Of a stretch of DNA of 64,000 nt, positions 10,827-55,040 are shown one piece after another. The translations under genes were made by a program, and so were the position numbers. The stretch's first letter is position 1. Every line of letters starts with the position of its first letter. The stretch is from Lentimicrobiaceae bacterium (lineage in GTDB: Bacteria; Bacteroidota; Bacteroidia; Bacteroidales; F082), in assembly GCA_015061365.1 (NCBI GenBank), contig SUWS01000002.1:22806-86805 (forward strand). The letters are read 5' to 3'. The notes beneath the pieces were generated by a model. It made no database searches. It was not told the DNA's origin and saw only the letters and a list, made by a program, of their open reading frames with translations.

Positions 10827-12014
10827 ATGGTTAATAAAATTCATAATAACAAATCGAGATACAAACTATTGCTATTTGCTTATTTTTGTGTAATCTTTAC
10901 TTCCCTATGGGAGAATAATATATACACATTATTTGTTTTTTCTTGTATCTGCTGGTTTGTTTTACCTTATAAAAAATATTGGGATAACATAACTATATCA
11001 TTACTTTTTTTCTCATTATTTTATACACTTATGGTATATATTAATGGCAAAAGCAACAGTTATTTTGTGTTACTTTCATATATGATTGCACCTACTGTGT
11101 TTTATCGTTTTGGAAAATTTCTAATGGATTTTATACGGCAAGATATATCACGGCAGATATTTCTAATTTGCAGTATTGTGCTATATTTGGTATATTTGTA
11201 CATATTGACTTTTAGAGATGTGGCATTAGTTGGTCTTGTTAATGAAAGTCGCATATTATTAAACAATGATTCTGAGATGTCTTTTTCAATGAGAGGAATT
11301 GGTGCCACTATGTATGGAATGATGTCATCTATTGGTATAGGTTGTATTAGTAGTATTTTTATAAAGAAACAAAATTTAAGCTTAAAGATCTGCTTTATTG
11401 TTATTACTATATTGTCGATGCTGTGTGTTATACATTTGGTTAATCGTACAGGCATCGTTGTTTTTGCAACTTGCATAGTCATGTCGTTATTGATACATAG
11501 TAAGATGAATCCATACAAAGTGTTTAGTGGATTATTGATAATTGCCGCAGTAGTTTTTATCATAGTTAAGACAGAAATGGTTAATCAAGATATAATTGAT
11601 GCATATGTGTATAGGGAAAGTAGTTCATCAACATCAGATTCAAGTGAATTAGGAGGCCGCTTGGATAATTGGCAAGGTGCTATTGCTGATATGTTTATTC
11701 ATCCATTTGGGTGGACATCTCATGAGTACAATTACGTACATAATTTGTGGATGGATATTGCTCGTGTTGGCGGAATACTTCCATTGATACCGTTTTTATT
11801 TGCTACATTTATATACATAAAAAAAATTATACGATTATCTTTAAAAAAATACTTATCTCATTTCGCGATAATTATCATATCCGTTAATATTGCGATATTC
11901 CTTTCAGTATTCGTTGAACCCGTAATTGAAGCATCGCTTTTATATTTTTGCATAATGATGATGATTTGGGGAATTACAAGTAACTTATCAAGAGAGAATA
12001 TAGCAACTATATAA
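10827..12014 (+). CDS. O-antigen polymerase-like membrane protein (Wzy_C type)
   Basis: Multi-pass membrane protein with NRTGIVVF... and a HNLWMDIARVGGI motif (the HN...G.G loop of the Wzy_C family). Confidence 0.6.
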   Translation: MVNKIHNNKSRYKLLLFAYFCVIFTSLWENNIYTLFVFSCICWFVLPYKKYWDNITISLLFFSLFYTLMVYINGKSNSYFVLLSYMIAPTVFYRFGKFLMDFIRQDISRQIFLICSIVLYLVYLYILTFRDVALVGLVNESRILLNNDSEMSFSMRGIGATMYGMMSSIGIGCISSIFIKKQNLSLKICFIVITILSMLCVIHLVNRTGIVVFATCIVMSLLIHSKMNPYKVFSGLLIIAAVVFIIVKTEMVNQDIIDAYVYRESSSSTSDSSELGGRLDNWQGAIADMFIHPFGWTSHEYNYVHNLWMDIARVGGILPLIPFLFATFIYIKKIIRLSLKKYLSHFAIIIISVNIAIFLSVFVEPVIEASLLYFCIMMMIWGITSNLSRENIATI

Positions 12015-37820: not shown

Positions 37821-37894
37821 GCCTCCTTAGCTCAGTTGGTTAGAGCATCTGACTGTTAATCAGGGGGTCTCAGGTTCAAGTCCTGAAGGGGGCG
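37821..37894 (+). tRNA. tRNA-Asn (anticodon GTT)
   Basis: Hand-folded cloverleaf. Acceptor GCCTCCT/AGGGGGC, D arm GCTC..GAGC, anticodon loop CTGTTAA, T arm TCAGG TTCAAGT CCTGA. Confidence 0.9.
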
Positions 37895-37905
37895 CAAAGA
37901 GAGAG

Positions 37906-39338: not shown

Positions 39339-41474
39339 ATGAAGATATTCCAGACAGAAGACATTCGGAACGTCGCTCTCATAGGAGCTGCTAAATCCGG
39401 TAAGACAACGCTTGCTGAAAACATGGTTTTCGAAGGTAAGCTCATCAACAGAAAAGGCACTACAGAAGGTAAAAACACAGTATCTGACTATCGTCCAATA
39501 GAAACAGAACGCGGTATATCTGTAAACGCCAGTTTGTTATACACAATCTATAACGACAAGAAAATAAATATTTTAGATACTCCAGGTTTTAGCGACTTCT
39601 CAGGCGACATCGTTGCTTGTTTGACAGCTGCTGATATGGCTGTTTTCACAGTCAACGCTCAAGCAGGTGTTGAAGCAACAACAGAAAATGCATGGAAATA
39701 CGCTACAAAAACAAACAAACCTGTAGTGTTCTTCATGAACCAATTGGATCACAGCAACGCTAATTTCGATGACACAGTACGTCAATTGAAAGAATATTTC
39801 GGCGATAAAGTTACTCCAGTTCAATTCCCAGTAGCAACAGGTGAAGGTTTCAACTCAGTCATCGACCTTATTACAATGAAGATGTTAGTCTTCAAGAATG
39901 GTAACGGTGCTCCTGAAGTACAAGACATTCCTGCTAACTTAGCAGACAAAGCTGAGGAATTACACAACGAACTCATCGAACACGCAGCTGAAGGTGACGA
40001 TGCTCTTATGGAGAAATTCTTCGAAGAAGGTACACTTTCAGAAGAAGACATGGAAAAAGGTCTCCACCTCGGTATCATCAACCGTGATATGTTCCCAGTA
40101 TTGTGTGGTGCAGCTAAATCAGGTGCCGGTGTTACACGTCTCTTAGAATTCCTTATCAACGCTTGTCCTTCACCAGCTCACGTACATACTACAAAAGCTG
40201 TAAACGGTACAGAATTCCATAACAGCACAGAAGAAGCTCCAGCAATGTTCTTCTTCAAGATCTCTAACGAACAAAACGTTGGTGACGTCGCTATGGCTCG
40301 TATCTACGGTGGTACAATCGCTGAATCACAAGATATGGTTAACCCACGTACAGGCAACAAAGAACGTATTTCTCAACTTTTGGTTTCAAACGGTAAGACA
40401 CGTGAGAGAGTTGAAAAAGCCTGCGCTGGTGATATCATCTCTACAATCAAATTGAAAGACGTTCGCGTCAACGACAGCTTGGTAGATGCTAAGATCTCTG
40501 ACACAGCATTCGAAGGCGTTCCATTCCCAGCTCCAATTTTCTCTACAGCTATCAAAGCCGTTAACTCACAAGAAGACGAAAAACTCGGCGGTATCCTCGC
40601 TGACTTCCATAAGATCGACCCAACAGTCATCACTTCAATGTCACGTGAGTTAAGACAAAATATCCTTCAATGTCAAGGTGAATATCACCTCAATACAATC
40701 AAATGGTATCTCGATAACGTACATAAAATCGCTGTTGAATTTGCAGCTCCTAAGGTTCCTTATCGCGAAACTATCACCAAGACAGCTAACGCTGACTACC
40801 GTCACAAGAAACAATCAGGTGGTTCAGGTCAGTTCGGTGAAGTCCACATGAGATTAGCTCCTTATTATGAAGGTTACACAGATCCATCAGACCTCCAAGT
40901 TCGTGGTAAAGATGAATACGATCTCCCATGGGGCGGTAAACTCATCTTCTGCAACTGTATCGTCGGTGGTTCTATCGATGCTCGTTTCATGCCAGCTATC
41001 TTGAAAGGTATCAACGAACGTTTGGAAGAAGGTCCTCTTACAGGTTCATACGCTCGCGACATCATCTGCTACATCTATGATGGTAAGATGCACCCAGTTG
41101 ACTCAAACGAAATGGCATTTAAGATCGCAGGTCGTATGGCATTCTCAGCAGCATTTAAAAACGCTGGTCCTAAGATCATGGAACCTATCTACGACTTGAC
41201 AGTTCGTATGCCAGAAGATATGATGGGCGCTGTTAACACCGACCTCCAAAGCCGTCGTGCTATCATCATGGGTATGGATGCTGACCGCAACTACCAAATC
41301 ATCCGCGCAAGAGTCCCATTGGCAGAAATGGACAGATATTCAACTTCATTGAGTTCTTTGACATCAGGCCGTGGTACATTCACAATGGAATATGCAGAAT
41401 ACGCACAAGTTCCAACTGACGTTCAAACAAAACTCTTGAAAGCTTACGAAGAAAGCAAGAAAGACGAAGATTGA
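39339..41474 (+). CDS. Elongation factor G paralogue (EF-G2-like)
   Basis: 711 aa with full EF-G domain order. G1 reads GAAKSGKTT and switch II reads DTPGFSDF (no His). Confidence 0.9.
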   Translation: MKIFQTEDIRNVALIGAAKSGKTTLAENMVFEGKLINRKGTTEGKNTVSDYRPIETERGISVNASLLYTIYNDKKINILDTPGFSDFSGDIVACLTAADMAVFTVNAQAGVEATTENAWKYATKTNKPVVFFMNQLDHSNANFDDTVRQLKEYFGDKVTPVQFPVATGEGFNSVIDLITMKMLVFKNGNGAPEVQDIPANLADKAEELHNELIEHAAEGDDALMEKFFEEGTLSEEDMEKGLHLGIINRDMFPVLCGAAKSGAGVTRLLEFLINACPSPAHVHTTKAVNGTEFHNSTEEAPAMFFFKISNEQNVGDVAMARIYGGTIAESQDMVNPRTGNKERISQLLVSNGKTRERVEKACAGDIISTIKLKDVRVNDSLVDAKISDTAFEGVPFPAPIFSTAIKAVNSQEDEKLGGILADFHKIDPTVITSMSRELRQNILQCQGEYHLNTIKWYLDNVHKIAVEFAAPKVPYRETITKTANADYRHKKQSGGSGQFGEVHMRLAPYYEGYTDPSDLQVRGKDEYDLPWGGKLIFCNCIVGGSIDARFMPAILKGINERLEEGPLTGSYARDIICYIYDGKMHPVDSNEMAFKIAGRMAFSAAFKNAGPKIMEPIYDLTVRMPEDMMGAVNTDLQSRRAIIMGMDADRNYQIIRARVPLAEMDRYSTSLSSLTSGRGTFTMEYAEYAQVPTDVQTKLLKAYEESKKDED

Positions 41475-41610: not shown

Positions 41611-42528
41611 ATGAATATGTCAGAAAATAGAAAAAAGAAAAGCACATTCTTTGTGTTTATGGAAGATGTCTATGTAAATTTAAAAGCATTAGGAAAAATC
41701 AGGACATCTGAGACCTACAAATCGTCATTGGATAGCTTCAGAAAGTTTAGAAAAGGTAAAGACTTGACCTTCAATAAATTTAATCATGAGATGATGATTG
41801 AATATGAAGCATATCTTAAAGCAAAAGGAATTTCAAAAAACACGTCTTCTTTTTATATGCGAACGTTGCGTGCTGTATACAACAGAGCCGTAAACAAAGG
41901 TCTCACTCTTCAGAAATATCCGTTCAAATATGTCTATACCGGCATTGACAAAACACGGAAAAGAGCAGTCTCGGTTCAGATAATGAAGCAGATTAAAAGT
42001 CTGGATTTATCATCGGAATGGAAATTAGATTTTGCGAAAGATATGTTTCTGTTTTCATTTTACACGAGAGGAATGTCATTTGTCGACATGTCATATCTTC
42101 GTAGAAAAGATTTAAGCAATGGAATATTGACCTACCGACGGCACAAGACAGGACAGCTGCTACATATAAAATGGGAAGCCTGTATGCAGGAAATTGTCAA
42201 TAAATATAAAAACGAGCAATCTACATTTCTATTACCTATTATTAATACTGATGAAGTAGAAGAGCAACGCAAGCAATATATTTATTCTGCGCATAATATT
42301 AATAGGTGTCTAAAGAAGATTGGAGCAATGTTAGGCTTATCGTTGCCATTAACGATGTATGTTGCCCGGCACACATGGGCAAGTATTGCAAAACAAAAGA
42401 ATATCCCGTTATCAGTCATCAGCGATGGGTTAGGCCATGACTCAGAATTAACAACGAGAATCTATTTGTCTTCATTGGATAATGTAGAGATAGATAAGGC
42501 TAACAGAATGATTCTTAATCTTTTATAA
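41611..42528 (+). CDS. Tyrosine site-specific recombinase (Bacteroides small integrase/invertase type)
   Basis: 305 aa. SAM-like N-terminal domain, ARHTWASIA (R-H) and LGHDSELTTRIYL (H...Y) catalytic motifs. Confidence 0.9.
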   Translation: MNMSENRKKKSTFFVFMEDVYVNLKALGKIRTSETYKSSLDSFRKFRKGKDLTFNKFNHEMMIEYEAYLKAKGISKNTSSFYMRTLRAVYNRAVNKGLTLQKYPFKYVYTGIDKTRKRAVSVQIMKQIKSLDLSSEWKLDFAKDMFLFSFYTRGMSFVDMSYLRRKDLSNGILTYRRHKTGQLLHIKWEACMQEIVNKYKNEQSTFLLPIINTDEVEEQRKQYIYSAHNINRCLKKIGAMLGLSLPLTMYVARHTWASIAKQKNIPLSVISDGLGHDSELTTRIYLSSLDNVEIDKANRMILNLL

Positions 42529-42541
42529 GCTCTTATCTGTA

Positions 42542-42701
42542 ACATCTCTTCCCAAGAGATTTATAACTACTTGCAAAGTAAATAAAAATATTGATATAAA
42601 ATACATTATATATAAAATTTTTTTTCTGACACTTTTTAACTAATCTTAAAGACCTGATTTTCAATAATATAACTTCAAAATATTCTCTTGGGAAGAGATG
42701 T
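42542..42701. promoter_or_regulatory. Candidate invertible DNA segment: perfect 18-bp inverted repeats flanking 124 bp
   Basis: acatctcttcccaagaga (42542-42559) and tctcttgggaagagatgt (42684-42701) are exact reverse complements. The left repeat starts 14 nt after the recombinase stop and the right repeat ends 94 nt before ATG 42796. Confidence 0.5.
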
Positions 42702-42795: not shown

Positions 42796-43593
42796 ATGAA
42801 ATTAATAATTCCAAACGGATGTTTAGCAGCAGAAAATGATGCTGCTGCAAAAATCAGAGCAAGTCTCGCTAAAGATCTTAAAGATGGTAAACCTGTAGAA
42901 ATTGCTTCTTCAGGAGATGTCATGGGACAAAATGGTGAACAAAAGAAACTTGAAATCCAACCTGGCAAATTGGCAGCAGAAAATGATGCGGCTGCACGAA
43001 TACGAGCAAGTCTCGCTAAAGATCTTAAAGACGGTAAACCTGTAGAAATTGCTTCTTCAGGAGATGTTATGGGACAAAATGGTGAACAAAAGAAACTTGA
43101 AATTCAACCTGGTAAATTGGCAAACTATCAATGGTATGAAAGAGAGCCTCAAAGACTCCGAGGTGAAATTGAAGGAATGAATGAGTTCTTTCCTCAATTT
43201 AAATTGTATAAAATGAATGACGGACGATATTATTGGAGAGGAACTTTGCGTCCAAATGTTTTGCCTAATGGTTGGGCTTGGGAAGTTGCTGCAATTTACA
43301 ATAATGACCACCCAGCGCCACAAATGGGAGGTTCGGTGCGTGTAGTTCTTTTAAATCCTGATATTGATACAGTGATCAATGCATTGGGATGGAGACCTCA
43401 TCATCTTTTATATTGTCCTACAGATGGTACATATCTTTGTACAACACGCGCACAAGATATGAGTTATGGTACTCAATACGAAACTACAGCTGTTCAAACT
43501 TTAACTTGGGCAGTTAAATGGTTAACTGCTCTTGAGTTGGTATTGACTGGTGATTTATCTAAAGAATTGTTTAATAATCCTGTTGGAATATAA
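42796..43593 (+). CDS. Two tandem 49-aa modules fused to an E2/UBC-like domain (tentative)
   Basis: The C-terminal 155 aa show an E2-like order: a helix (QRLRGEIEGMNEFF), YYWRGTL, EVAAIYNNDHPAPQ...VRVVLLNP, then PHHLLYCPTDGTYLC (HPN-like position plus a G-x-Y-L-C candidate catalytic Cys), then a helix (TLTWAVKWLTALE). Confidence 0.5.
   Translation: MKLIIPNGCLAAENDAAAKIRASLAKDLKDGKPVEIASSGDVMGQNGEQKKLEIQPGKLAAENDAAARIRASLAKDLKDGKPVEIASSGDVMGQNGEQKKLEIQPGKLANYQWYEREPQRLRGEIEGMNEFFPQFKLYKMNDGRYYWRGTLRPNVLPNGWAWEVAAIYNNDHPAPQMGGSVRVVLLNPDIDTVINALGWRPHHLLYCPTDGTYLCTTRAQDMSYGTQYETTAVQTLTWAVKWLTALELVLTGDLSKELFNNPVGI
42826..43119 (+). repeat. Tandem in-frame duplication, 2 x 147 bp
   Basis: Units 42826-42972 and 42973-43119 differ at only a handful of positions. 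Each encodes AAENDAAA(K/R)IRASLAKDLKDGKPVEIASSGDVMGQNGEQKKLEIQPGKL. Confidence 0.95.
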
Positions 43594-43601
43594 GTTGTGT
43601 T

Positions 43602-44303
43602 ATGATTTCACACGTAGTTTTTACCAAAAGAGCATTTAATGCAATTGTTACAGAGACAATAGATAAGAATCCTGTAGAAACTGGCGGTATCTTTATAGGA
43701 TATTTGCTAAATAATGGGATTGCCATAGTTGTAGAAACAATTCCCCCAGGCATTAGAACAATAAATCAACGTGCATATTTCGAATATGATGCTGATTTTG
43801 TCAATTACCTATCTAACGTTATTGCAAAACAATATGTAGGCAACCTTCATGTATTAGGATTATGGCACCGCCATCCAGGAAGTATGGATACATTCTCAAT
43901 GACAGATAATGGAACCAATATCAAGTTCGCCGTAAACAATGGAAATTACGGAGCTATATCTGCATTGGTAAATTGTGACCCTAAATTGCGATTAACAATG
44001 TATCATGTTAATCCAGATTGTACTTATACACCTATTGAATGGAGTGTCGATGACGGTATAATTCCAGAAGATCTATTAAAACTTCATTATGAAGATGCGT
44101 CAAATCTTCCAATTTTAGGTGAGCACTCTTATAATATGAGTCCAGCTACCTCTGTATCACCCAACAACAATAACAGCGGTAGTGAGCATATTGTGGATTC
44201 TATTTGTGAATCTCCAGAAACAGGATCTAGCAAATATACAATTGCAGATGCAATAGATGACTTTTCTAAAATAATTCGCAAACTCATTAATAATGCAAAT
44301 TGA
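43602..44303 (+). CDS. JAB/MPN (JAMM) metallopeptidase
   Basis: NPVETGGIFIGY (Glu) plus GLWHRHPGSMDTFSMTD, an exact H-x-H-x7-S-x2-D JAMM motif. Confidence 0.85.
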   Translation: MISHVVFTKRAFNAIVTETIDKNPVETGGIFIGYLLNNGIAIVVETIPPGIRTINQRAYFEYDADFVNYLSNVIAKQYVGNLHVLGLWHRHPGSMDTFSMTDNGTNIKFAVNNGNYGAISALVNCDPKLRLTMYHVNPDCTYTPIEWSVDDGIIPEDLLKLHYEDASNLPILGEHSYNMSPATSVSPNNNNSGSEHIVDSICESPETGSSKYTIADAIDDFSKIIRKLINNAN

Positions 44304-44395
44304 GTAGTCTTTCTATACTAATTTATCATAATAACATTTCCGATATAGATTTAAGTAAAATGGAATTAGTTTACAAACTATAATACTTGTCAAAT

Positions 44396-45829
44396 ATGAA
44401 TTCACACATTATAGAATCTGCAAACTTGTATTTAAAAACAAAGCCAGAAGGCAAAATTATTTTCCCTTCACAAATTTATGAAGAAAAATACATCGGTCCA
44501 CTCAATGGCTATTATGTTCCCGAAACAAATATTTTTAATGTCATTCCTACAGATACTCTTCATATAAATAATGGAAAGTGTTCATTGTTAGGATTCATAT
44601 TACCATTAAATCCTCTAAGATATATTGAAGAGAAAACGCCAGAAAAAGATCCCCTTTCAATAATTAAAGAAAAAATGGGATTAAGCAATGAACATAAAAA
44701 AACATTAACAATACAACCATCAAAACCAATTCCTTTTGATGGAGATGGAATAGCTATTAACAATGACATTTCATTAAGCATCAAAGAAAAATTCATCCCA
44801 GAATTAATACGATTATTAAAATACGAAAGTTTTTTAATTGATTCAATACAAGAATGGGTGGAATATATATTTAAATCAAGGGAAGAAGACTTACTATTAG
44901 GATATTGGGAAGATAATCGCATATACTTTCATCATATAAAATGGCATTTTATAAATAAATACATAAATCCAACTCCATTGATACAAGAAACTTATTCTTT
45001 AAAATTAGATGTATTTTCACGGAATACTGGTATTCTTGAGTCTGATATAATGCTAACTAAAGGTGCTGTATTTATTGGATGTGGTTCCGTGGGTAGTTTA
45101 TTTGCTTTAGAATTGGCTCGTGCTGGTGTTGGTCGCTTTATGCTGATAGATAGCGATATTTTAGGATATCATAATATTTGCAGACATCAGTGTGGAATAT
45201 TTGATGTTGGTAGATATAAAACAGATGCAGTAAAAGATAGAATCCTGCAAATAAATCCTTATGCAGAAGTTGTTACGTATAATATGAGAATTCAAGAAGT
45301 TCCATTAGATGATTTGATGAAATTTTGTGATGTAAATACTATTGTTATTGGTGGAGCTGATAATCGAGAAGGTGATTTGTATGCTAATAGCATTGCACAA
45401 CATGTGGGTATGCCATTTATGTCTATTGGATGTTGGGAAAGAGCATTTGCTGGTGAAATATTTTATTGTTTGCCTACAGGTATGCCAACATATAAAGATT
45501 TCATGGAAGTTACAGGACATATGTCTGCACGAGTGACTCAAAATAGAAGATTTTACACAACTGAAGCAGAGCTTGAAAAAGTATCTTTTGAACCAGGTAT
45601 ATCAGTAGATATAAATTTTGTTACAACTATTGCTGTAAAACTAGCCATTGATTTGCTCAATAGAGATAATGAAAATTATACCCAAAGGTTATTACCTCAT
45701 TTGACACAATATACATTGGTATGCAATACGAATAACACAAAAGTCGGAGGAGAAATGGCAGAGATATTCTCTTATCCATTGCAGGTAACTACAAGTATTA
45801 TTGTACCATACTCAAATAAGGAAGAATAA
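44396..45829 (+). CDS. E1-like ThiF/MoeB-family adenylyltransferase with an unknown N-terminal region of about 215 aa
   Basis: FIGCGSVGSLFALELARAGVGRFMLIDSDILGYHNICRHQ and GGADNREGDLYAN match the Rossmann GxGxxG, D.D...N..R and DN..R motifs of ThiF. ATG at 44396 preferred to TTG 44387. Confidence 0.85.
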   Translation: MNSHIIESANLYLKTKPEGKIIFPSQIYEEKYIGPLNGYYVPETNIFNVIPTDTLHINNGKCSLLGFILPLNPLRYIEEKTPEKDPLSIIKEKMGLSNEHKKTLTIQPSKPIPFDGDGIAINNDISLSIKEKFIPELIRLLKYESFLIDSIQEWVEYIFKSREEDLLLGYWEDNRIYFHHIKWHFINKYINPTPLIQETYSLKLDVFSRNTGILESDIMLTKGAVFIGCGSVGSLFALELARAGVGRFMLIDSDILGYHNICRHQCGIFDVGRYKTDAVKDRILQINPYAEVVTYNMRIQEVPLDDLMKFCDVNTIVIGGADNREGDLYANSIAQHVGMPFMSIGCWERAFAGEIFYCLPTGMPTYKDFMEVTGHMSARVTQNRRFYTTEAELEKVSFEPGISVDINFVTTIAVKLAIDLLNRDNENYTQRLLPHLTQYTLVCNTNNTKVGGEMAEIFSYPLQVTTSIIVPYSNKEE

Positions 45830-45830
45830 T

Positions 45831-46472
45831 ATGGCTGAATTTGATCAATATGGGCGTCTAAAAAATCCGAATTTTCGCCAGTCTCGTCCTGTTTCTAGCT
45901 TTGTACCATCAGCAACATATAGCAGAGAATCTGGGTGGCAAAGATTCAATGGCTTTATAAGTGATATAGGGCAATGGTTAAGAGACAATTGCAGTGCTCT
46001 AGCTAACAATATATCAATTGGAGGATTTTTTATTGCATGTATAGCAATTATAATAGGAGCCATCTATACATGGATTGATGATGGTTTTGTGGAATTTATT
46101 ATATATGCTATTGTCGCAGCTCTTGTTATGTATTTTGGAGGTTTGTTAGTAACAGGATTAATGATGATAGTATTAAACATCCCAATATACATATTGGGGA
46201 TTATATTTCATAGTGCATATTCTCTGATAATAACAATACTATTAGCATTAGGTATAATAATATATTGTAATTATGATAACAATAGTTATTCATCTTCTCA
46301 TAATAAGTATACACCTATAGCAGAAGAAACTGTCAAAACAAATACAGAAAATACACCTGCTACCACCCAATATGTATGTACTGCAAAATCAACGTTGAAC
46401 GTACGTAGATCTCCTGATATTAATTCACAAGGATTAACAGAGGTTTTTTCGGGTCTTTATTCGACAAATTAA
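45831..46472 (+). CDS. Small membrane protein (about 4 TM) with a low-complexity tail
   Basis: The ATG lies 2 nt after the E1-like stop. Hydrophobic stretches FFIACIAIIIGAIY, IIYAIVAALVMYFGGLLVTGLMMIVL, ILGIIFHSAYSLIITILLALGIIIY. Confidence 0.55.
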   Translation: MAEFDQYGRLKNPNFRQSRPVSSFVPSATYSRESGWQRFNGFISDIGQWLRDNCSALANNISIGGFFIACIAIIIGAIYTWIDDGFVEFIIYAIVAALVMYFGGLLVTGLMMIVLNIPIYILGIIFHSAYSLIITILLALGIIIYCNYDNNSYSSSHNKYTPIAEETVKTNTENTPATTQYVCTAKSTLNVRRSPDINSQGLTEVFSGLYSTN

Positions 46473-46507
46473 GAAATCTATTTGGGTAAAATTAAGGAGA
46501 AATAATC

Positions 46508-46903
46508 ATGGACTTAGGAATAATAGGAATAATTATCGCTATTGTAATAGTTGTAATAATTGTAATATCATTAAGAGCCTTACGCGAAAAGTATGTGTGG
46601 ATGGATGGTGTTGTAGCTTTTATTATGATTGGAGCAGTTATAGCAGGTTGGATTATTGGTGGATTTTGGATGGGTGTAGCGACATTTATTGGTTCATTAT
46701 TGGTTATAGGTTTATTATTCGGTTTAGGAAATGATTATACTGAGGTCCGGATAGATGTTCATACTACAGCTAAGATTAAATGCCCTCAGTGTAACTATGG
46801 CGGAATGGATATAATTTCTAGTAGATATGATTCAGAGCAAAAAGTTACAAGTATAGATGCTAAGTGTAAACGTTGTGGTAAAGTAACTAATTTTATAGGT
46901 TAA
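46508..46903 (+). CDS. Small membrane protein (about 3 TM) with a C-terminal CxxC...CxxC zinc ribbon, ending in Gly
   Basis: GIIGIIIAIVIVVIIVI, VVAFIMIGAVIAGWIIGGFWMGVATFIGSLLVIGLLFGL, then KCPQCNYGG...KCKRCGKVTNFIG*. Confidence 0.55.
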   Translation: MDLGIIGIIIAIVIVVIIVISLRALREKYVWMDGVVAFIMIGAVIAGWIIGGFWMGVATFIGSLLVIGLLFGLGNDYTEVRIDVHTTAKIKCPQCNYGGMDIISSRYDSEQKVTSIDAKCKRCGKVTNFIG

Positions 46904-46934
46904 TAAATTATAGTTTAATTTTAATATAGTAATC

Positions 46935-48101
46935 ATGCAGAAAATGTGTTTTGTGATGTTAACATATAAATGCAACCTCAATTGCATCTATTGTTATCAA
47001 AAGTATAAAACTTCACAAAGAATGACTTTAGAAACAGCCAAGTCTGTGGTTTCAAGGGAAGTTCAGTTAGCCAGAGAGTCTAATAATAAGGATGGTGTAA
47101 GATTTGACCTATTTGGTGGTGAGCCATTGCTTCAATTTAATCTGATTAAAGAATTATGTGCTTGGATATGGGAGACTATTACAGATGTGAAAGTTGATAT
47201 TTACATAACAACCAATGGAACACTGCTTGATGATGAGAAAAAAGAATGGTTTAAGTCTCATAAAGAAAGAATCAATCTTATTATGTCTGTCGATGGCAAA
47301 GATGATGTACAAGTAGGTAATAGAGGCTGTCAGCTCTCCGATTTACCTATAAAGTGGGTAATAGACACATTGCCAAATTATCTGTTAAGTATGACTATTT
47401 CGAGAAAATCTCTTGCGAATTTTGCAGATGATCTCATATATTTTCATGAACAGAATTATAGCATAGATGCAAAACCAGCCCAAGGTGAAGATTGGCGGGA
47501 CGGAGACGGTCAAATATATGAAAATCAATTGTATAAACTATCAGATTATTATTTGGCACACCCTGAGATAAGACCAATGTACATCTTCAAGGAAAGCTCA
47601 TATGTTCATTTGCTTAACAATGAGCCAAACGAAAAATATGGCAAAACATGCGGTGTCGCAGAAGATCTTGTAGCTTATGATGTAGAAGGTCGATTGTTTC
47701 CTTGTCATCATTTTCTGCCTAATGTAAACGGTAAAACCGATATACTGGATTATCTGAACAAGCTTGATTTCTCTGATTCATCAAAATTTGTTGATGAGGA
47801 ATGTATAAAGTGTGATATATTGAAACTTTGCAGGACCTGTTCTGCTCGCAATTTCAATGAAAGAGGAGATGTTAGTCGGAGGGATAAACGAGCCTGTCAA
47901 ATAATGCTTGCTGAAGCTAAAGTAGTAAGCCAGTTCCAAATTAAGAAACTGATGCAAAATAAAGATAACTTAAGTGCACACGATTTATTGAACCTAAAGG
48001 CCGCTATCAAGTGTCAACAGCTCTGTAGTGACTTTGAGAAGAAATTTTGTGCACATAAAAAACAAAATGGAGAAGCCGATAGCCATAAAGTGGAGGCATA
48101 A
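46935..48101 (+). CDS. Radical SAM enzyme with a SPASM/twitch C-terminal domain (anSME-like peptide maturase)
   Basis: YKCNLNCIYCY (CxxxCxxC). C-terminal CGVAEDLVAYDVEGRLFPC (C...G-x4-C) and CIKCDILKLCRTC (CxxCx5CxxC). Confidence 0.85.
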   Translation: MQKMCFVMLTYKCNLNCIYCYQKYKTSQRMTLETAKSVVSREVQLARESNNKDGVRFDLFGGEPLLQFNLIKELCAWIWETITDVKVDIYITTNGTLLDDEKKEWFKSHKERINLIMSVDGKDDVQVGNRGCQLSDLPIKWVIDTLPNYLLSMTISRKSLANFADDLIYFHEQNYSIDAKPAQGEDWRDGDGQIYENQLYKLSDYYLAHPEIRPMYIFKESSYVHLLNNEPNEKYGKTCGVAEDLVAYDVEGRLFPCHHFLPNVNGKTDILDYLNKLDFSDSSKFVDEECIKCDILKLCRTCSARNFNERGDVSRRDKRACQIMLAEAKVVSQFQIKKLMQNKDNLSAHDLLNLKAAIKCQQLCSDFEKKFCAHKKQNGEADSHKVEA

Positions 48102-48120
48102 TTTATTAATACATTTCATT

Positions 48121-48249
48121 ATGTTAAACAATGAATTGCTTATGGAAGCTGCCGCATTGGTAAACTCAAATGAGGCAAAGATCGCTCAACTTCAAGCTGA
48201 TGTTGAATGCGCATCTGGTTGTGGAATATGTGGTTACGGTAGTAACTAA
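48121..48249 (+). CDS. Candidate RiPP precursor peptide (42 aa)
   Basis: MLNNELLMEAAALVNSNEAKIAQLQADVECASGCGICGYGSN has a helical leader-like N-terminus and a Cys/Gly-rich C-terminal 13 aa. It starts 19 nt after the SPASM enzyme stop. It is the internal ATG of track ORF 48028..48249. Confidence 0.5.
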   Translation: MLNNELLMEAAALVNSNEAKIAQLQADVECASGCGICGYGSN

Positions 48250-48264
48250 TATTCTTTAAACACT

Positions 48265-48299
48265 GTAGGCTGACTAAAAATACTTTTTGGTCAGCCTAC
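48265..48299 (+). promoter_or_regulatory. Perfect 10-bp stem-loop directly after the precursor ORF
   Basis: gtaggctgac-(15 nt)-gtcagcctac with no T-tract after it. Possibly a partial terminator or an mRNA stabiliser. Confidence 0.45.
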
Positions 48300-48332
48300 T
48301 CATTTATCAAGGAAATTGAATATATTGACTTT

Positions 48333-50132
48333 ATGCTAAATTCAAACAACTCACAAGAAAACAAGAAAGTAGATGCATTACTTGTTCAATTATCTGCAAA
48401 TCCATATTTTGACATGCTTTCATCGTATAGCATAGGACAATTAGGATTATATTATTTAGCCGAATATGCAGATAGATTTGGTTGCCTTGTAAAGGTTAAG
48501 TATTACAATTCATTTGATGAAGTCTCAATGTTACTTCCTGAATTAATACGAAATACATCTTGTCGTATTATAGGATTTTATGTAGATAGTGATAATATTT
48601 GGTCATTAAGAGCATTAATGCCCAAATTATATCAATGTTGTCCCAATATTAACATCATTATAGGTGGGCCTCAGGTAACAGGTGACCCACATGGAACTAT
48701 GCAATTAATTCCCAATGTTACTTGCGGTGTTATCGGGGAAGGTGAAGTTCCATTTCTTAAACTATTACAATCAGATACACTTAATGAAGATGTGTTAAAT
48801 TGTATTGATGGTCTGATTTATAATTCCACTAATGGATTAATAACAACAAAACCTCAAAAACAAGATCCAAATATTGATGAATTCGGTTATCCTAAAAGAG
48901 AAAAATATTGCTTAGATCCAAACAAAGTAACATTCTCACAATTAATAACAGGAAGAGGTTGTATGGGACAATGCGCATTCTGTTACGAAGGCGGAAAAGA
49001 ACATACTAACTTACGTGTACGCAACGTAGATTCTTGTTTAGAGGAAATTGATTATTTAGTAGATACTTACGGAGTTAAGTATATTAATATAGTGGATGAC
49101 ACATTCATTTTAAATAGGAAACGAACGGAGGAGTTTTGTAATAGATTGATCAATAAATATAATGGTAGTATTAAATGGTACTGTGAAGCAAGAGCTGATA
49201 TATTGTCTAAAAACATTGATATTCTGCCATTATTAAAAAAAGCAGGATTAGTTAAAATACAATTAGGAGGCGAGTCTGGATGCCAAGAAATTTTAGATGC
49301 ATACAAAAAAGGGGTAACTATAAAGCAATTAGAGTTTGTTACACAAAAGATAGTAGATGCAGGTATTCCATATATCTATGCCAACTTCATAATAGGTGGA
49401 GCATTTGAGACAGAATCAACTTTTAACCGGACATTAAACTTCGCTAAAAAACTAATGCGTACCGCACCTGGTCACGTTGAAGTTAGTTCATCGGTCTTTA
49501 CTCCAACACCAGGTTCTCCAATGTATAATAATCCAGAAGAGTATGGTTTGAAGATAATAGATAAGAGAAGCATAAGAGGAGCTAATTGTTCTTTTGTATT
49601 TGCAGAAACCGAACAACTGAATCAGTATAAGATTTGGCAATTACGTAATAGATTTAACAATGAAATAAAAAATGAATACGCTTCATTATTAGATGATATA
49701 TCACTTGAACAGTTAAAAAATATATTCTATCTATCAACAAAATTCTCTATAGACACACCATGGTCAAATCTGCTAAAAAGTAAGGCACATTATAGAAATT
49801 ATATAGAACCTTTAGTAAGAGGCGGCTTCTATTCTTTTAGCGAAATACCTATCGACAATATATTTTCTGCTATTCCTTTAAGAACCACTCATCTAAGTTC
49901 TGATGGAGTAGCATTTTATAGGATTAAACGGTCAGGTGAATATGTAAAAAACAGTAATTTAGAAAATGCTCTGATCACATTATCCGCAGGAAAATTAACA
50001 TTCTTGGATATTTTTAATATGATAAAATCTAATCCTGCTTTTATTACAAGTAGGACCGATATACTTGATGAATGCCTATCTATATATAGAGAATTTGAAC
50101 GTGAATTTTCTGTTGTATGGAAAAAAATTTAA
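48333..50132 (+). CDS. B12-binding-domain radical SAM enzyme (class B type)
   Basis: N-terminal Rossmann-like B12-domain region, then ITGRGCMGQCAFCYEG (CxxxCxxC). Confidence 0.8.
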   Translation: MLNSNNSQENKKVDALLVQLSANPYFDMLSSYSIGQLGLYYLAEYADRFGCLVKVKYYNSFDEVSMLLPELIRNTSCRIIGFYVDSDNIWSLRALMPKLYQCCPNINIIIGGPQVTGDPHGTMQLIPNVTCGVIGEGEVPFLKLLQSDTLNEDVLNCIDGLIYNSTNGLITTKPQKQDPNIDEFGYPKREKYCLDPNKVTFSQLITGRGCMGQCAFCYEGGKEHTNLRVRNVDSCLEEIDYLVDTYGVKYINIVDDTFILNRKRTEEFCNRLINKYNGSIKWYCEARADILSKNIDILPLLKKAGLVKIQLGGESGCQEILDAYKKGVTIKQLEFVTQKIVDAGIPYIYANFIIGGAFETESTFNRTLNFAKKLMRTAPGHVEVSSSVFTPTPGSPMYNNPEEYGLKIIDKRSIRGANCSFVFAETEQLNQYKIWQLRNRFNNEIKNEYASLLDDISLEQLKNIFYLSTKFSIDTPWSNLLKSKAHYRNYIEPLVRGGFYSFSEIPIDNIFSAIPLRTTHLSSDGVAFYRIKRSGEYVKNSNLENALITLSAGKLTFLDIFNMIKSNPAFITSRTDILDECLSIYREFEREFSVVWKKI

Positions 50133-51077
50133 ATGTTAAAACACATTATTAAACTAATGCAATATACAGACACTTTACATATAGTTAAAGATACTCTTTT
50201 GGATGAGGAGCATCTCAGGATGATACAAGAGTTTACACAAAAAACAGCTTCCAACACAGCTTTTAGTTTTTGGCGTGAAGCAGATTTCTGGGAGTATTTG
50301 GCAATAGGTCTATCATTTTTAGCGATCGTGTTAGCTGTTGTTACTGCAATCTTACAATGGAAAACTGAAAGAAATACAAGAATGTCTTTAAGTATGAAAA
50401 ACCAAGTTTATGAATCTATATTCAAGTTATTACTCAATGATCTTTATAGAATACAATGTGATATTTTATCACTGCAAATTATTTTAATAGAAAATGATTT
50501 TCAATCATATCCGACAAAACGATATCTAAAAAAAATGATGATTAAATTTGATGATTCTAATCTTGATTCTTTTTTAGTTGTCTTTAATAAAGAAGATAAA
50601 GGCGAAGCTGAAGAGCATTATCTTAAAATGAGGGAAATCAATAGGTTAATTCATAATTATAATGTTAACCTTGAAATATTAATGGAACATTTAAAAGACT
50701 CATCAGTAGATACAAGCACCAAATTATTTGATTTCTCAATCATAAATAATAATATATGTTTTCTAAGTAAAAAGATAATTCAAACTGCTGAATCTATTTA
50801 TGGAAAGAATTCTGATGTTGGTACTTCTCTGCTGCATTATGTAAAAAAAGCTTTAGAATTTTATCAATCAAGTGAGACTAATATAACCTCTATAGATAGT
50901 TATACAAACCTAAAAAAATACGAAGATATTATCAATCCAGTTCTTAACAACTATTTCGAATATACCAATACCATATCTACAAATGAAGCAATGTTATTGG
51001 CATATAGACTAATATCAAACGAAATAGACAAGAACGATTCTGATGTAAAAAACAACTTAATAAGGTTTAAGACATAA
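50133..51077 (+). CDS. Hypothetical single-pass membrane protein, helical
   Basis: The ATG abuts the upstream stop. One TM (FWEYLAIGLSFLAIVLAVVTAILQW). No recognisable motif. Confidence 0.45.
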   Translation: MLKHIIKLMQYTDTLHIVKDTLLDEEHLRMIQEFTQKTASNTAFSFWREADFWEYLAIGLSFLAIVLAVVTAILQWKTERNTRMSLSMKNQVYESIFKLLLNDLYRIQCDILSLQIILIENDFQSYPTKRYLKKMMIKFDDSNLDSFLVVFNKEDKGEAEEHYLKMREINRLIHNYNVNLEILMEHLKDSSVDTSTKLFDFSIINNNICFLSKKIIQTAESIYGKNSDVGTSLLHYVKKALEFYQSSETNITSIDSYTNLKKYEDIINPVLNNYFEYTNTISTNEAMLLAYRLISNEIDKNDSDVKNNLIRFKT

Positions 51078-51148
51078 TCATCAAAATATCTTAAAATCAG
51101 ATGATAAAGTTCTAATGAAATTTTCAGTTTAATGTAAAAAGAATCAAT

Positions 51149-52213
51149 ATGGACGTAAATTTTTTAAATAAAATTTTGAACACTCATAGTGTTTCTGGAT
51201 TTGAAGACAAAACTGGCAAGCTATTTATAGATTATATTACACCTTATGTTGATTCCGCTTATACCGATATTATGGGGAATTGCTATGCTAATATCGGCTA
51301 TGTACCAGAAGACAATTTATTTCCGAAAATTCTGATAGAGGCTCATATTGATGAAATAGGATTTCAGGTTATATATATTGATGATAATGGATTTATATAT
51401 ATTCGTAAGAATGGAGGAGTGGATATACAATGTATTCCTGGTTCACAGGTAATTATACAAACATTATCGGGCGAAGAACTATTCGGAATTATTGGTAAGA
51501 AACCTATACATTTGACTGCGCCAGAAGATAGAAACAAAAATATTGAATTACATTCTTTATGGATTGATACAGGATTATCCCCCGATGAGGTAAAGAAAAA
51601 GATTTCCATTGGAGATGTTGTAGCTTGGAAATCTAACATGATGTACTTATCAGATAAAAGAATCTCATCTAAAGCTTTAGATGATAAAGTTGGAGTATAT
51701 ATAATAAGTCAGGTCTTGAAAAAATTATCAATAAATAAAATTTGTAATGCTCAAGTATGCGGTGTCGCTTCTGTTCAAGAGGAAGTTGGTCATCGAGGAG
51801 CGATGGTATGTTGTCACAAATTAAATCCAGATATAGCAATTAGTATAGATGTTGACTTTGCAACTGATGTCCCTGACTGTCCTAAAACAAAATTTGGAGA
51901 TATTTCATTAGGTAATGGCGTTGTAATTCATAAAAGTATTGACAATACTAAATCTATTACATTATTAGCTGAAAAAATCGCAAAAGAGAATAATATAAAA
52001 TATCAAATTTCTGCACGACCAACTTCTGTAGGAGGCACCAATGCTGCAGTTTTACAACAAACACAAAATGGTATAAGAACAATAAGTTTAGGAATACCTT
52101 GTAGGTATATGCATACACCTGTTGAATTATGCGACTTAGATGATATAAAAGATGCTATTGAGTTGTTATATCATATGATTATAAACATAATTCATGTAAC
52201 CAAAATTGATTAG
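51149..52213 (+). CDS. M42 family metallo-aminopeptidase
   Basis: IEAHIDEIGF, SKALDDKVGV, QEEVGHRGA and the DVDFATD pattern of M42 (FrvX/PepA-like). Confidence 0.85.
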   Translation: MDVNFLNKILNTHSVSGFEDKTGKLFIDYITPYVDSAYTDIMGNCYANIGYVPEDNLFPKILIEAHIDEIGFQVIYIDDNGFIYIRKNGGVDIQCIPGSQVIIQTLSGEELFGIIGKKPIHLTAPEDRNKNIELHSLWIDTGLSPDEVKKKISIGDVVAWKSNMMYLSDKRISSKALDDKVGVYIISQVLKKLSINKICNAQVCGVASVQEEVGHRGAMVCCHKLNPDIAISIDVDFATDVPDCPKTKFGDISLGNGVVIHKSIDNTKSITLLAEKIAKENNIKYQISARPTSVGGTNAAVLQQTQNGIRTISLGIPCRYMHTPVELCDLDDIKDAIELLYHMIINIIHVTKID

Positions 52214-52308: not shown

Positions 52309-53343
52309 TTACAATTCAAGACTGTCCGTATTTAAAAGAAAATCTATGACACTTATGTAAAGTACACCTTGCTCATTGAACCAAGGTTTTGTCGCTGTCC
52401 GCTGAATGACAATCTTTCTGAAAGAATCATCTATATTGCGAAAAGATTGTAATTCTTGCTTCATTTTTTCTTCATCGGATATTTCATATGCCGATTGTAT
52501 GTAATAACGCTTATCACCCTTATTAGCTATGAAATCCACCTCTAATTGTTTCTTCACATATTTGTCGTCTTTCTTTTCATTTACGATAACAACACCAACA
52601 TCAACGCTATATCTTCTTCTTAAAAGCTCGTTATAGATAATATTTCCCATAATGTGATTCTCTTCCTGCTGACGGAAATTGAGTCGGGCATTACGCAAGC
52701 CAACATCAACGAAATAATATTTCATTGGAGTTCCTATATACTTACGACCCTTGACATCGAATCTGTGAGCTCGTTCAATTAAAAAGGAATCAACGAGATA
52801 GTCGATATATGACGAGATGGTGAACTGCGAAAGCTTCATATTATTTGACGATTGAAATGTATTTGCCAAACGCTGAGGATTGGTGAGAGAGCCAATAGAC
52901 GACGCCAAGACATTTGTCAGAACTCCAATCTCCTCACGACCTTTCAGCTTATATTGATTTATTATGTCGGAAAGATAAACCTGCTCAAACAAGTTTCTAA
53001 GATACGACTCTCTTTCATCGTCAAAGTCCATGCTCCAAATCAATGGCATCCCTCCGTAACGACAATACAATGTCCATAATTTTTCCTTGTCTATATCTGA
53101 GATACTACAAACCTCAGAAAAACTGAAAGGATATACTCTTATCTCATCGCCTCTGCCTCTGAATTCTGTTATTATGTCGCTCGAGAGAAACTTTGAATTG
53201 CTACCCGTAACATAAACATCCACATTTGACAAATGCAAAAAACCATTCAACACAGGAACAAAATCCTCAACCAACTGAATCTCATCTAAAAGAATGTAAT
53301 ACTTCCCGTCATCGGTAATTCTGTTTTTGACGTAATTATACAA
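52309..53343 (-). pseudogene. 5'-truncated AAA_14/DUF4143-type ATPase
   Basis: Begins at ...LYNYVKNRITDDGKYYILLDEIQ (Walker B). The Walker A part, about 75 aa, is absent. The open frame runs back only to the stop codon of the adjacent ROK gene. Confidence 0.65.
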
Positions 53344-54449: not shown

Positions 54450-55040
54450 TTAATTTTTAATTTTTTCTTTTTTATGTAAAAATTTCTCCACCCAGATAAC
54501 CCACATTATAAATATGAAGAGGTAGAACATTGTCTTGAAGACGTAGTCGTGGAAAAAATCGAAATGACCCGGGAAAGGAATCATGCAAAGTGTGATGCCT
54601 ACAACCCTGATAACGTTAACCCATTCGATGATAACAAGACCTAACGGAATGTACCATAGTTTATGTTTCCACGGACCCGGAAATAATAACATCAGAAACA
54701 CCCAGTGAAGCCATTGTTTCAAACTTGTACATTCTGGAGCCACATTAACGTAGGAATATGTTTCATTGCAATTAATTACGCCAATGATATGTTCGTGTGT
54801 TATTATGTCAATTCTAAAAATATGTTCGAGAACCCAGCAGCTTTGGTTGAATAGAAGCTCAGATGCGGAGTCGAAAAGTCTGTTTATAAGATCTTGAATT
54901 GGAAAGTAATTCAGTGCCTGCCATCCGAGATACAGAAAGTGAAAGCTGAAGATAAGTACTATAAACAAACCAACGTCTATGGTTGATGTGTACTTCTTGT
55001 CTTTATAAAGTTCTTTAATCTTTTTTATATTTAAATCCAT
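54450..55040 (-). CDS. Exosortase/archaeosortase-family membrane protein (XrtF-like, tentative)
   Basis: Multi-pass membrane protein with VAPECTS (Cys), NVIRV (Arg) and FFHD (His), in the order of the exosortase catalytic residues. Confidence 0.45.
   Translation of the reverse strand: MDLNIKKIKELYKDKKYTSTIDVGLFIVLIFSFHFLYLGWQALNYFPIQDLINRLFDSASELLFNQSCWVLEHIFRIDIITHEHIIGVINCNETYSYVNVAPECTSLKQWLHWVFLMLLFPGPWKHKLWYIPLGLVIIEWVNVIRVVGITLCMIPFPGHFDFFHDYVFKTMFYLFIFIMWVIWVEKFLHKKEKIKN

Follow-up and report, generated by a model that had tools for sequence, protein, structure and literature searches.

The genes between positions 46935 and 52213 of the DNA studied here raise two questions: what do they make, and where does the unit to which they belong begin? 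The window, i.e. the whole stretch analysed, comprises 64,000 nucleotides of contig SUWS01000002.1 from a Lentimicrobiaceae bacterium (positions 22,806 to 86,805 of the forward strand). An earlier note, made from the letters of this stretch, described the genes as a radical S-adenosylmethionine (radical-SAM) peptide-maturation module, consisting of a SPASM-domain enzyme, a short precursor-like open reading frame (ORF), a B12-binding radical-SAM enzyme, a membrane protein and an M42 peptidase. That reading was left standing by each of the note's own refuting checks that could be made computationally. The locus belongs to a real family of gut-Bacteroidales gene clusters, whose product is a small peptide modified by enzymes and derived from a conserved precursor of 42 residues. 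The region is probably the biosynthetic operon for a peptide made on ribosomes and modified post-translationally (RiPP), of a previously undescribed family; "probably" applies here to the RiPP operon, a candidate phase-variable switch at its front and the pathway proposed below, all taken together. Judged by its sequences, the locus would best be seen as a novel variation on radical-SAM RiPPs of the thioether type, outside every curated family. It is no new category of system: there are many radical-SAM peptide families that await characterisation.

Extent and gene content of the operon

Every component listed by the earlier note was found at its position on the + strand. The span given for the module, 46935-52213, does hold those genes but cuts off the front of the operon, namely a recombinase gene, an invertible segment and an E2-JAB-E1 cassette. 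The start lies about 4.4 kb further upstream, at a tyrosine recombinase gene and an inverted repeat (Table 1). The operon genes at 42796-52213 are all on the + strand, with intergenic gaps of 0-92 nt. The G+C content is 0.29-0.33 over 44-52 kb, as compared to 0.39-0.40 on the right flank.

Table 1. Genes and other elements of the operon, with positions in the window
Feature	Position	Strand	Evidence
Tyrosine recombinase, ~303-305 aa, candidate invertase	41611-42528	+	Phage_int_SAM_5 2.8e-20; Phage_integrase 6.3e-08
Candidate invertible promoter segment	42542-42701		Arms 42542-42559 ACATCTCTTCCCAAGAGA and 42684-42701 TCTCTTGGGAAGAGATGT; 124 nt enclosed
E2-like protein, two-copy 49-aa N-terminal tandem repeat	42796-43593	+	PADLOC E2 1.8e-10
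JAB/JAMM isopeptidase, Cap3-like	43602-44303	+	Prok-JAB 5e-07; PADLOC JAB 2.8e-13; NCBIfam Cap3 5e-06
E1 (ThiF-type adenylating), 220-aa N-terminal domain, Cap2-like architecture	44396-45829	+	ThiF 8.7e-25; PADLOC E1-E2 3.4e-27
Membrane protein TM1, about four hydrophobic spans	45831-46472	+	Hydropathy
Small membrane protein TM2, C-terminal CxxC...CxxC zinc-ribbon-like motif	46508-46903	+	Translation, hydropathy
Radical-SAM/SPASM peptide maturase, 388 aa, no N-terminal RiPP recognition element (RRE)	46935-48101	+	Pfam Radical_SAM 9e-11; best hidden Markov model (HMM) PapB; best structure CteB
Precursor peptide, 42 aa	48121-48249	+	MLNNELLMEAAALVNSNEAKIAQLQADVECASGCGICGYGSN; conserved beside SPASM homologues
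Hairpin 3' of the precursor gene, candidate partial terminator or RNA-stabilising element	48265-48299	+	16 bp
B12-binding (class B) radical-SAM enzyme, ~190-aa C-terminal extension	48333-50132	+	Pfam B12-binding and Radical_SAM
Single-pass membrane protein, 314 aa, accessory	50133-51077	+	One hydrophobic span, residues 50-78
M42 (TET-type) aminopeptidase, candidate leader-trimming enzyme	51149-52213	+	Pfam Peptidase_M42 7.9e-78

Gene neighbourhoods were examined for about 20 lineages of SPASM homologues; the loci compared are designated by L numbers, and a selection is given in Table 2. The SPASM gene and the precursor gene are the invariant pair across these loci. Where the peptide is of the window's type, SPASM gene, precursor, hairpin and B12 enzyme are always present and the M42 gene usually, while the 314-aa membrane protein is lineage-specific.

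Table 2. Gene content of related loci, with the identity of their SPASM enzyme to that of the window
Locus	SPASM identity	Genes
L001 (Paludibacteraceae metagenome-assembled genome)	90%	Recombinase, inverted repeats, SPASM, precursor, B12, M42; no others
L186	82%	Recombinase, inverted repeats, small membrane protein, SPASM, precursor, B12, M42
L180	79%	Small membrane protein, SPASM, precursor, B12, M42
L183	69%	SPASM, precursor, B12 only; housekeeping genes around
L084 (Odoribacter)	62%	SPASM, precursor, B12
L087	50%	Second SPASM paralogue, SPASM, precursor, B12, M42, then MiaB-like enzyme and YcaO
L085	47%	Precursor, SPASM, YcaO
L089, L002	39-41%	SPASM and precursor only
L007, L023	28-30%	M42 upstream of CxxxC-type precursors and SPASM gene

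One relative is richer in genes. At L087 (4156-12771) two SPASM paralogues, a 48-aa precursor, a B12 enzyme and an M42 gene are joined by a MiaB-like radical-SAM gene of the methylthiotransferase type and by YcaO, behind a switch of the same recombinase and inverted-repeat type; YcaO and MiaB-like genes, as found in the relatives, are typical RiPP tailoring genes. At L081 (13645-15761), a relative of 84% identity, two more genes stand behind the M42 gene, one of the ADP-ribosylglycohydrolase family and one for a third radical-SAM enzyme (438 aa).

The radical-SAM/SPASM enzyme

The cysteine motifs on which the enzyme had been recognised are present: C13-x3-C17-x2-C20 for the radical-SAM cluster, and C239, G252-x4-C257, C290-x2-C293-x5-C299-x2-C302 and C321 for the SPASM domain. 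All ten cysteines (three radical-SAM and seven auxiliary-cluster) are invariant in 26 homologues of 32-83% identity. Homologues number 573 at E <= 1e-10, mainly from gut and rumen Bacteroidales. A metagenome scan with the SPASM alignment yielded mainly SPASM enzymes of a generic kind, at 24-28% identity, and few additional true relatives; plasmid and phage collections held distant SPASM relatives only. A 36%-identical homologue at 10061-11125 of the phage record MT836223.1, an 11.8-kb 'Bacteriophage sp.' entry from human faeces, could be carried by a phage or stem from a bacterial fragment that was binned wrongly.

Ranked by NCBIfam models, the enzyme is closest to PapB (1.9e-39), followed by the nif11-like, CXXX-repeat (1.9e-28), CcpM and SCIFF (8e-25) maturases. 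Its sole full-length sequence match in the PDB is CteB (9.3e-23). The AlphaFold model is a confident one (predicted local distance difference test, pLDDT, 91.9), and a fold search with it placed CteB on top (E 1e-17, template modelling score, TM, 0.63-0.67), with the anaerobic sulfatase-maturating enzyme anSME close behind (TM 0.65) and ChlB, TigE and SuiB nearby. The closest characterised relatives by sequence are thus thioether-forming peptide maturases and not sulfatase maturases, the identity that would have spoken against the earlier reading; by fold, anSME nearly equals CteB. Formation of a thioether is the best guess for the reaction, from these relatives and from the invariant Cys pair of the precursor described below; fold alone leaves the reaction unfixed. 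Cyclophane chemistry of the ChlB kind, prompted by a conserved Tyr in the precursor, was considered and rejected, as only the two Cys, and not the aromatic residue, persist across the other core types.

The precursor peptide and the hairpin

The short ORF follows the SPASM stop codon after exactly 19 nt (48102-48120), the spacing reported earlier. When it was looked for beside SPASM homologues, it was present next to relatives of about 37-90% identity from Paludibacteraceae, Odoribacter, Alistipes and other Bacteroidales, and a short Cys-containing ORF directly adjoins the SPASM gene in nearly all of the lineages. A profile built from eight precursors retrieved 66 peptide clusters of 42-48 aa, each labelled "hypothetical protein"; no Pfam or NCBIfam family matched the precursor. 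The ORF was called as a gene by several metagenome pipelines. Variable columns at codon positions 1/2/3 number 13/9/31 in eight genes of the window's type (type A), and by this excess at the third position the precursor gene carries the signature of translation.

Type-A precursors have the leader MLNNELLxEAxALVNSNE..IAQLQ and the core ..GC-x-[I/M]-CGYG-x-N. The leader motif N-E/D-x-L-L-x-E-A..L-V and a CxxC pair are common to all precursor types, and the core types track the phylogeny of the SPASM enzymes. Type A, in full ..GC-[G/S/C]-[M/I]-CGYG-x-N, is joined by type B in Alistipes (..IGCFGCG[F/L]GC[S/A]DTVGG), type C at L089 (..CNIGCEFCANCSGIVGG), type D at L085 (..EGCSFCGLGC[E/S]GIVG), type E at L087 (..SCSMCGAGCSGIVGD) and a further type at L090 (..HCSWCTNCAGIVGD). 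In the distant precursors of L023, L093 and L096 'CG(x)SN' recurs. The ORF had been called Cys-rich. In the logo of 28 type-A clusters the two Cys of the CxxC pair are indeed invariant, as are the two Gly flanking Tyr, but the first Cys of the core proposed earlier (C30) is kept in only 11 of the 28; Tyr is present in 27 and the C-terminal Asn in 25. The leaders of the precursor family lack a GG motif, as stated before.

The stem-loop noted behind the precursor gene is real, although not as a 10-bp stem: it has 16 pairs, including one G-U, with a free energy of -24.8 kcal/mol (z = -6.5, 200 shuffles), and no other terminator-like site on the + strand between 41.4 and 52.6 kb is as strong. A hairpin stands directly after the precursor gene in seven lineages (window, L001, L081, L084, L085, L087, L089), with stems unrelated in sequence, and this conserved position fits the idea that it might set the stoichiometry of precursor and enzymes. 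No riboswitch or known RNA was found over 38-54 kb, where the one match, to a microRNA, was a chance hit far under its cutoff.

The B12 enzyme, the 314-aa membrane protein and the M42 peptidase

Assignment of the second radical-SAM enzyme to class B held, marginally for the B12-binding domain (PF02310, 32.8 bits against a cutoff of 32.1) and clearly for the radical-SAM domain (PF04055, 63.5 bits, 3.6e-17). It meets no NCBIfam cutoff, those of the curated RiPP methyltransferases included, and its top matches there are BchE, HpnJ and PhpK. Its only PDB sequence matches are the C-methyltransferases CysS (5e-14) and TokK. Judging from its relatives, methyl transfer is the most likely reaction. The gene adjoins the SPASM gene in all ten type-A lineages sampled (among them the window, L001, L081, L084, L174, L177, L180, L183 and L186) and at L087, and is not adjacent in types B, C and D (L002, L089, L085). 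It thus occurs only with types A and E, in which the residue before the second Cys of the core is Ile, Met or occasionally Leu.

The membrane ORF does abut the B12 gene, starting on the base after its stop codon, and has a single span, as described earlier; it lies, however, outside the conserved module. No family match was obtained for it in Pfam, NCBIfam or PADLOC. A homologue (73%) is present only in L081-83, and L001, L084, L087, L174, L177, L180, L183 and L186 have none.

The last gene is an M42 peptidase over its full length (261.9 bits, cutoff 23.2), in agreement with the earlier assignment, and TET aminopeptidases in the PDB match it down to 2e-56. Its translation contains HIDE, DDKVG, QEEVG, DVD and YMHTP, which we take to be the metal-binding motifs. 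Of the ten type-A lineages sampled, seven have an M42 gene next to the SPASM cluster (window, L001, L081-83, L177, L180, L186), as has L087. L007 and L023, with SPASM enzymes of only 28-30% identity, also have it near the SPASM gene, with the genes in a different order; its frequency in two different gene orders points to a functional link rather than to inherited synteny.

The candidate invertible promoter

The recombinase has the core-binding and catalytic domains and no arm-binding domain; the R/H-x-x-R/Y motifs are visible in its translation. A perfect 18-bp inverted repeat lies 14 nt past its stop codon. Each arm is itself a small palindrome, TCTCTT-N3-AAGAGA, with the spacer CCC in one arm and GGG in the other, a layout with a reversed asymmetric spacer that looks like paired recombinase core sites in inverted orientation. 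Homologues of the recombinase (50-60% identity) lie upstream of the SPASM clusters of L001, L023, L087 and L186, each with repeats of its own: TCTCT-ATGAA-AGAGA around 173 nt in L001, CTCT-AGATA-AGAG around 171 nt in L023, TTCTCT-ACAAA-AGAGAA around 235 nt in L087 (which has a third arm copy and is identical to L088), and a 27-bp repeat, ATCCGTTTC-CTTGCAA-GAAACGGAT, around 148 nt in L186. An invertible promoter is indicated because the design of recombinase and inverted repeat recurs at these four loci while the sequences differ. The first gene after the right arm in L023 is of the NusG family (UpxY-like); such a first gene is typical of Bacteroides capsule operons.

A -7 box of the Bacteroides type (TAnnTTTG) adjoins the left arm on the minus strand in L001, L087, L180 and L186; in the window and L023 there are near-matches only. 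From this placement the promoter, as assembled, would face the recombinase (OFF) in all six loci. Expression of the operon is apparently phase-variable by inversion of the promoter. L180 stands apart: upstream of its type-A peptide operon, at 7447-7679, a 19-bp inverted-repeat pair with AGACGTTCGT and ACGAACGTCT encloses 195 nt. The repeats fit ARACGTWCGT, presumably the site consensus of the B. fragilis serine recombinase Mpi. A homologue of the window's recombinase is absent directly upstream of them (an integrase gene about 4.7 kb farther upstream is unrelated), which suggests that this operon family has a switch of a second kind.

The E2-JAB-E1 cassette

Five genes for an E2-like protein, a JAB isopeptidase, an E1 and the membrane proteins TM1 and TM2 lie between the candidate switch and the peptide genes. 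On an E2 gene identical to the window's, in L170, a weak PF26395 (E2-CBASS) match is recorded. The two units of the E2 duplication (~42823-42975 and ~42970-43122; AAENDAAAKIRASLAKDLKDGKPVEIASSGDVMGQNGEQKKLEIQPGKL) are 93% identical in DNA; the duplication is no recent accident, because the 75%-identical E2 of L189 shares it. The E1 belongs to a large family (2131 hits). With an AlphaFold2 model of the protein (pLDDT 69) the top Foldseek match is Cap2 (7to3; 477 columns, E 3.6e-13). By sequence its top PDB matches are MccB and PaaA, marginally (35.6 bits as against 30.8 for ThiF and UBA5). The thought that an MccB-like E1 might adenylate the C-terminal Asn of the peptide was set aside and is kept only as a rival of low probability: the model matches Cap2 over its full length, and the cassette also occurs without peptide genes.

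TM1 homologues follow the E1 in L189 (40%) and in L174 and L177 (27-31%). At its C-terminus, ...CTAKSTLNVRRSPDINSQGLTEVFSGLYSTN, the window's TM1 enters an SH3_3-like domain, of which the homologues in L174 and L177 have the complete form and the one in L189 nothing; the window protein appears to be truncated by about 35 residues. The slot of TM2 holds small membrane proteins in L180 (109 aa, membrane spans and zinc ribbon), L186, L081 and L085.

The cassette was found elsewhere in two settings. L189-193 have E2 (75%), JAB (57%), E1 (54%), TM1 (40%) and a zinc-ribbon membrane protein in the same order, adjacent to Fic, RhuM and type I restriction genes and without radical-SAM genes. L174-176 and L177-179, whose SPASM enzymes are 77-79% identical to the window's, have a different version in the same slot: JAB, E2, a 66-69-aa protein, E1 (33%) and a TM1 homologue with SH3_3. 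This second version at the same place speaks against mere coincidence, and the view of the cassette as a one-off insertion, suggested by L001, was revised after it turned up. In L081-83 other cargo, SLFN_AlbA_2, HATPase_c_4 and DUF6043, occupies the slot, a hint that variable genes of conflict type gather behind the switch.

Neither version of the cassette has an evident ubiquitin-like protein. The N-terminal repeats of E2 and the 66-69-aa protein were considered for this role and dismissed, since the two have no mutual similarity and the 66-69-aa protein (L174, L177) has no GG end. Among the ten proteins scanned (operon and adjacent recombinase) none matched a PADLOC model for a CD-NTase or an effector. 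The literature search returned nothing relevant linking E1/E2/JAB or Cap2/Cap3 with radical SAM, or an invertible promoter with radical SAM.

Proposed pathway

From these observations the following pathway is proposed. The helical leader, by its motif N-E/D-x-L-L-x-E-A..L-V, would presumably dock the precursor on the enzymes. The RRE-less SPASM enzyme would most likely make intramolecular thioether cross-links from the two invariant Cys of GC-x-[I/M]-CGYG-x-N, with the nearly invariant C-terminal Asn as a possible acceptor, and the B12 radical-SAM enzyme would most likely add methyl groups. The M42 aminopeptidase may then trim the leader from the N-terminus until the modified core is reached. 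The hairpin would keep precursor mRNA in excess over enzyme mRNA. The whole operon would be transcribed from a promoter on the 124-nt segment, which the adjacent tyrosine recombinase may invert and which would be OFF in this assembly. An independent, defence-type E2-JAB-E1-TM1-TM2 cassette, placed between switch and peptide genes, would share this promoter. The product is most likely a competition or signalling peptide.

The earlier suggestion that the product might act inside the cell has lost ground because two related loci have efflux-type genes downstream of M42, a MacB/FtsX permease in L177 and an OEP-MFP pair in L186. The statement on which it was based did hold: the genes of the operon and of its flanks that were examined included no ABC exporter or C39 peptidase.

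Several points weigh against the proposed reading. An RRE, an exporter and an immunity gene were not identifiable in the window. The SPASM enzyme misses all curated NCBIfam cutoffs by a factor of at least 2, and its fold neighbours perform other reactions (Cys oxidation by anSME, a cyclophane by ChlB, a cyclopropane by TigE, a Lys-Trp bond by SuiB). BchE and HpnJ, the best NCBIfam matches of the B12 enzyme, are not methyltransferases. To our knowledge, M42 peptidases are not known leader peptidases. The -7 box of the window is one base short of the consensus. No flipped segment was found: in each of four more contigs that carry this locus, of which three are identical and one has 3 mismatches, the segment is oriented as in the window, and for this reason we infer inversion from the design of the segment.

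Alternative readings

The absence of an exporter, an immunity gene and a C39 peptidase from the window would also suit a module that makes an intracellular cofactor or metabolite after the model of mycofactocin or pyrroloquinoline quinone (PQQ), in which the SPASM enzyme modifies C-terminal residues, the peptidase frees a fragment and nothing is exported. M42 is an aminopeptidase of cytoplasmic type, the conserved residues of the precursor stand at the extreme C-terminus, and minimal versions of two or three genes lie among housekeeping genes (L089, L183). This reading is nevertheless unlikely. The distribution of the locus is patchy and island-like, with a switch of phase-variable type and mobile and defence genes nearby; no partner redox enzymes co-occur; the core diversifies fast between lineages, unlike PqqA or MftA; and the efflux-type genes of L177 and L186 follow the cluster. 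The remaining doubt about the substrate itself is far smaller. That the short ORF is no substrate, the SPASM enzyme an anSME-like maturase of a protein and the neighbours unrelated is very improbable, even though the fold of anSME is nearly as close as that of CteB, an RRE is absent as in anSME, and L084 has a gene with an FGE-sulfatase domain upstream. The sulfatase maturase model TIGR03942 aligns with residues 10-126 only, the N-terminal third of the enzyme (8e-15, 54.8 bits, cutoff 349), no sulfatase gene was seen adjoining the SPASM homologues of the lineages examined, and the Cys-containing short ORF is the one constant neighbour. On the HMM scores and the lack of sulfatase neighbours in these lineages, the sulfatase maturase reading was rejected.

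The position of the cassette allows a further reading, in which the peptide module works together with E2, JAB and E1: the Gly-tailed peptide would be activated by the E1 and conjugated to a target as a mini ubiquitin-like tag, or both parts would jointly form a phase-variable system of conflict or phage defence, with the modified peptide as effector. E1/E2/JAB with TM1, in two versions that differ greatly (E1 33%), do stand directly upstream of SPASM genes that are 77-79% identical (window; L174-176, L177-179), with the lack of an evident ubiquitin-like protein in both. All precursor types are Gly-rich at the end (GYGxN, IVGG, TVGG, IVG, IVGD), and defence-type neighbours such as GmrSD, WYL, type I restriction-modification and SLFN_AlbA_2 are frequent. 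Yet each part is found alone. The peptide module occurs without the cassette in L001, L081, L180, L183, L186 and L087, and does not need it, since L001 is without all five cassette genes; the cassette is autonomous, since L189-193 carry the five-gene order without the peptide module. In addition, the E1 family, with 2131 hits, far exceeds the SPASM family with its 573, the C-terminus of the peptide is the same at loci with and without E1, and the E1 as a whole resembles Cap2 and not the peptide-adenylating MccB. A joint system is quite improbable on these grounds, and a RiPP operon with an independent cassette behind its switch is preferred.

Comparison with known systems

Among curated maturases the PapB or freyrasin type (NF047865) is the most similar and is matched end to end (residues 7-313 against positions 7-327 of the 330 of the profile). 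Both enzymes start directly with CxxxCxxC, with no N-terminal RRE, and both are encoded beside a small Cys-containing precursor gene. The window enzyme reaches, however, 135.8 bits against a cutoff of 340. The PapA precursor has repeated CxxxD motifs, whereas the window precursor has a single CxxC and a C-terminal Asn, and the window system is found in Bacteroidales, with added B12 radical-SAM and M42 genes. CteB, the SCIFF maturase (PDB 5wgg/5why) and top fold match, has the two-auxiliary-cluster SPASM domain in common with the window enzyme. The alignment covers CteB residues 100-438, and as it begins at residue 100 the N-terminal leader-binding domain of CteB is absent from the window enzyme; the SCIFF model TIGR03974 is matched from profile position 99 with 87.6 bits (cutoff 425), and the precursor is no six-Cys SCIFF peptide. 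CXXX-repeat maturases (TIGR04115) are likewise RRE-less and align over the full length (1.9e-28). Distant relatives of the window enzyme (28-33%; L007, L008, L091) adjoin CxxxC-repeat peptides, and a 28%-identical plasmid gene is annotated as a CXXX-repeat maturase, but the score is 100 bits against a cutoff of 350 and the window precursor has one CxxC and no CXXX repeats. The Bacteroidetes radical-SAM peptides with a GG leader (TIGR04148) differ by score (44.9 bits, cutoff 300), by their leader and by a C39/ABC gene, neither of which is present here.

B12-dependent C-methyltransferases of the radical-SAM type that act on RiPPs include PoyC and TIGR03975. With CysS and TokK the window's B12 enzyme shares the order of a B12-binding domain followed by a radical-SAM domain; it differs by the additional C-terminal region of ~190 aa and meets no curated cutoff. 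The invertible promoters of Bacteroidales capsule loci are similar to the candidate switch in the recombinase gene, the perfect inverted repeats, the segment of 124-235 nt and the Bacteroides-type -7 box, of which the window has a near-match only. The cargo differs, being a modified-peptide operon instead of a surface polysaccharide, fimbria or restriction system, and inversion is here a proposal from the layout. Type II systems of CBASS (cyclic-oligonucleotide-based antiphage signalling) with Cap2 and Cap3 resemble the cassette by the PADLOC E2, JAB and E1-E2 matches and by the best fold of the E1 model. The window differs in having no CD-NTase or known effector, separate E2 and E1 genes and two small membrane proteins after the E1. 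A study of RiPP mining in Bacteroidales (PMC10352776) describes a different, RRE-containing enzyme and makes no mention of B12 or M42 genes.

Significance

Modified peptides of Bacteroidales are poorly known though the group dominates gut communities, and the precursor family is new, with none of its 66 clusters named. The combination of an RRE-less SPASM enzyme, a B12 radical-SAM enzyme and a TET-type aminopeptidase is unusual, and M42 would be an unusual enzyme for leader removal. Capsules, fimbriae and restriction systems are known to be under phase variation. Provided that the switch is real, the same would apply to a modified-peptide pathway, and only part of the population would pay for or meet the product. 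The repeated placement of E1-E2-JAB beside the module offers a way to ask what the cassette targets where a CD-NTase is missing.

Other features of the window

Two further genes precede the recombinase, and no link of either to the operon was seen: an EF-G-family GTPase paralogue (711 aa; 39339-41474) just upstream of it, and a tRNA-Asn gene (37821-37895). A long polysaccharide locus on one strand occupies 6328-37698, with group 1/2 glycosyltransferases, a Wzy-like protein, Polysacc_synt_2 and a cytidylyltransferase, at a G+C content of 0.28-0.39. Inside it, at 21496-22920, lies an SLFN_AlbA_2/HATPase_c_4/HTH gene of the same family as the cargo behind the L081 switch. Two adjacent paralogues (516 and 517 aa) at 2905-6111 are each predicted to combine an AAA-ATPase (PF09820) with a PD-(D/E)XK nuclease (PF08011). 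On the right, a 196-aa membrane protein (54450-55040, - strand) has a weak, sub-threshold match to the exosortase EpsH (E 4e-4). Convergent with the M42 gene, an AAA_14/DUF4143 ATPase gene (52309-53343, - strand) forms the right-hand limit of the low-G+C block; a truncated N-terminus is possible, as the AAA_14 profile match begins at position 52 of 129.

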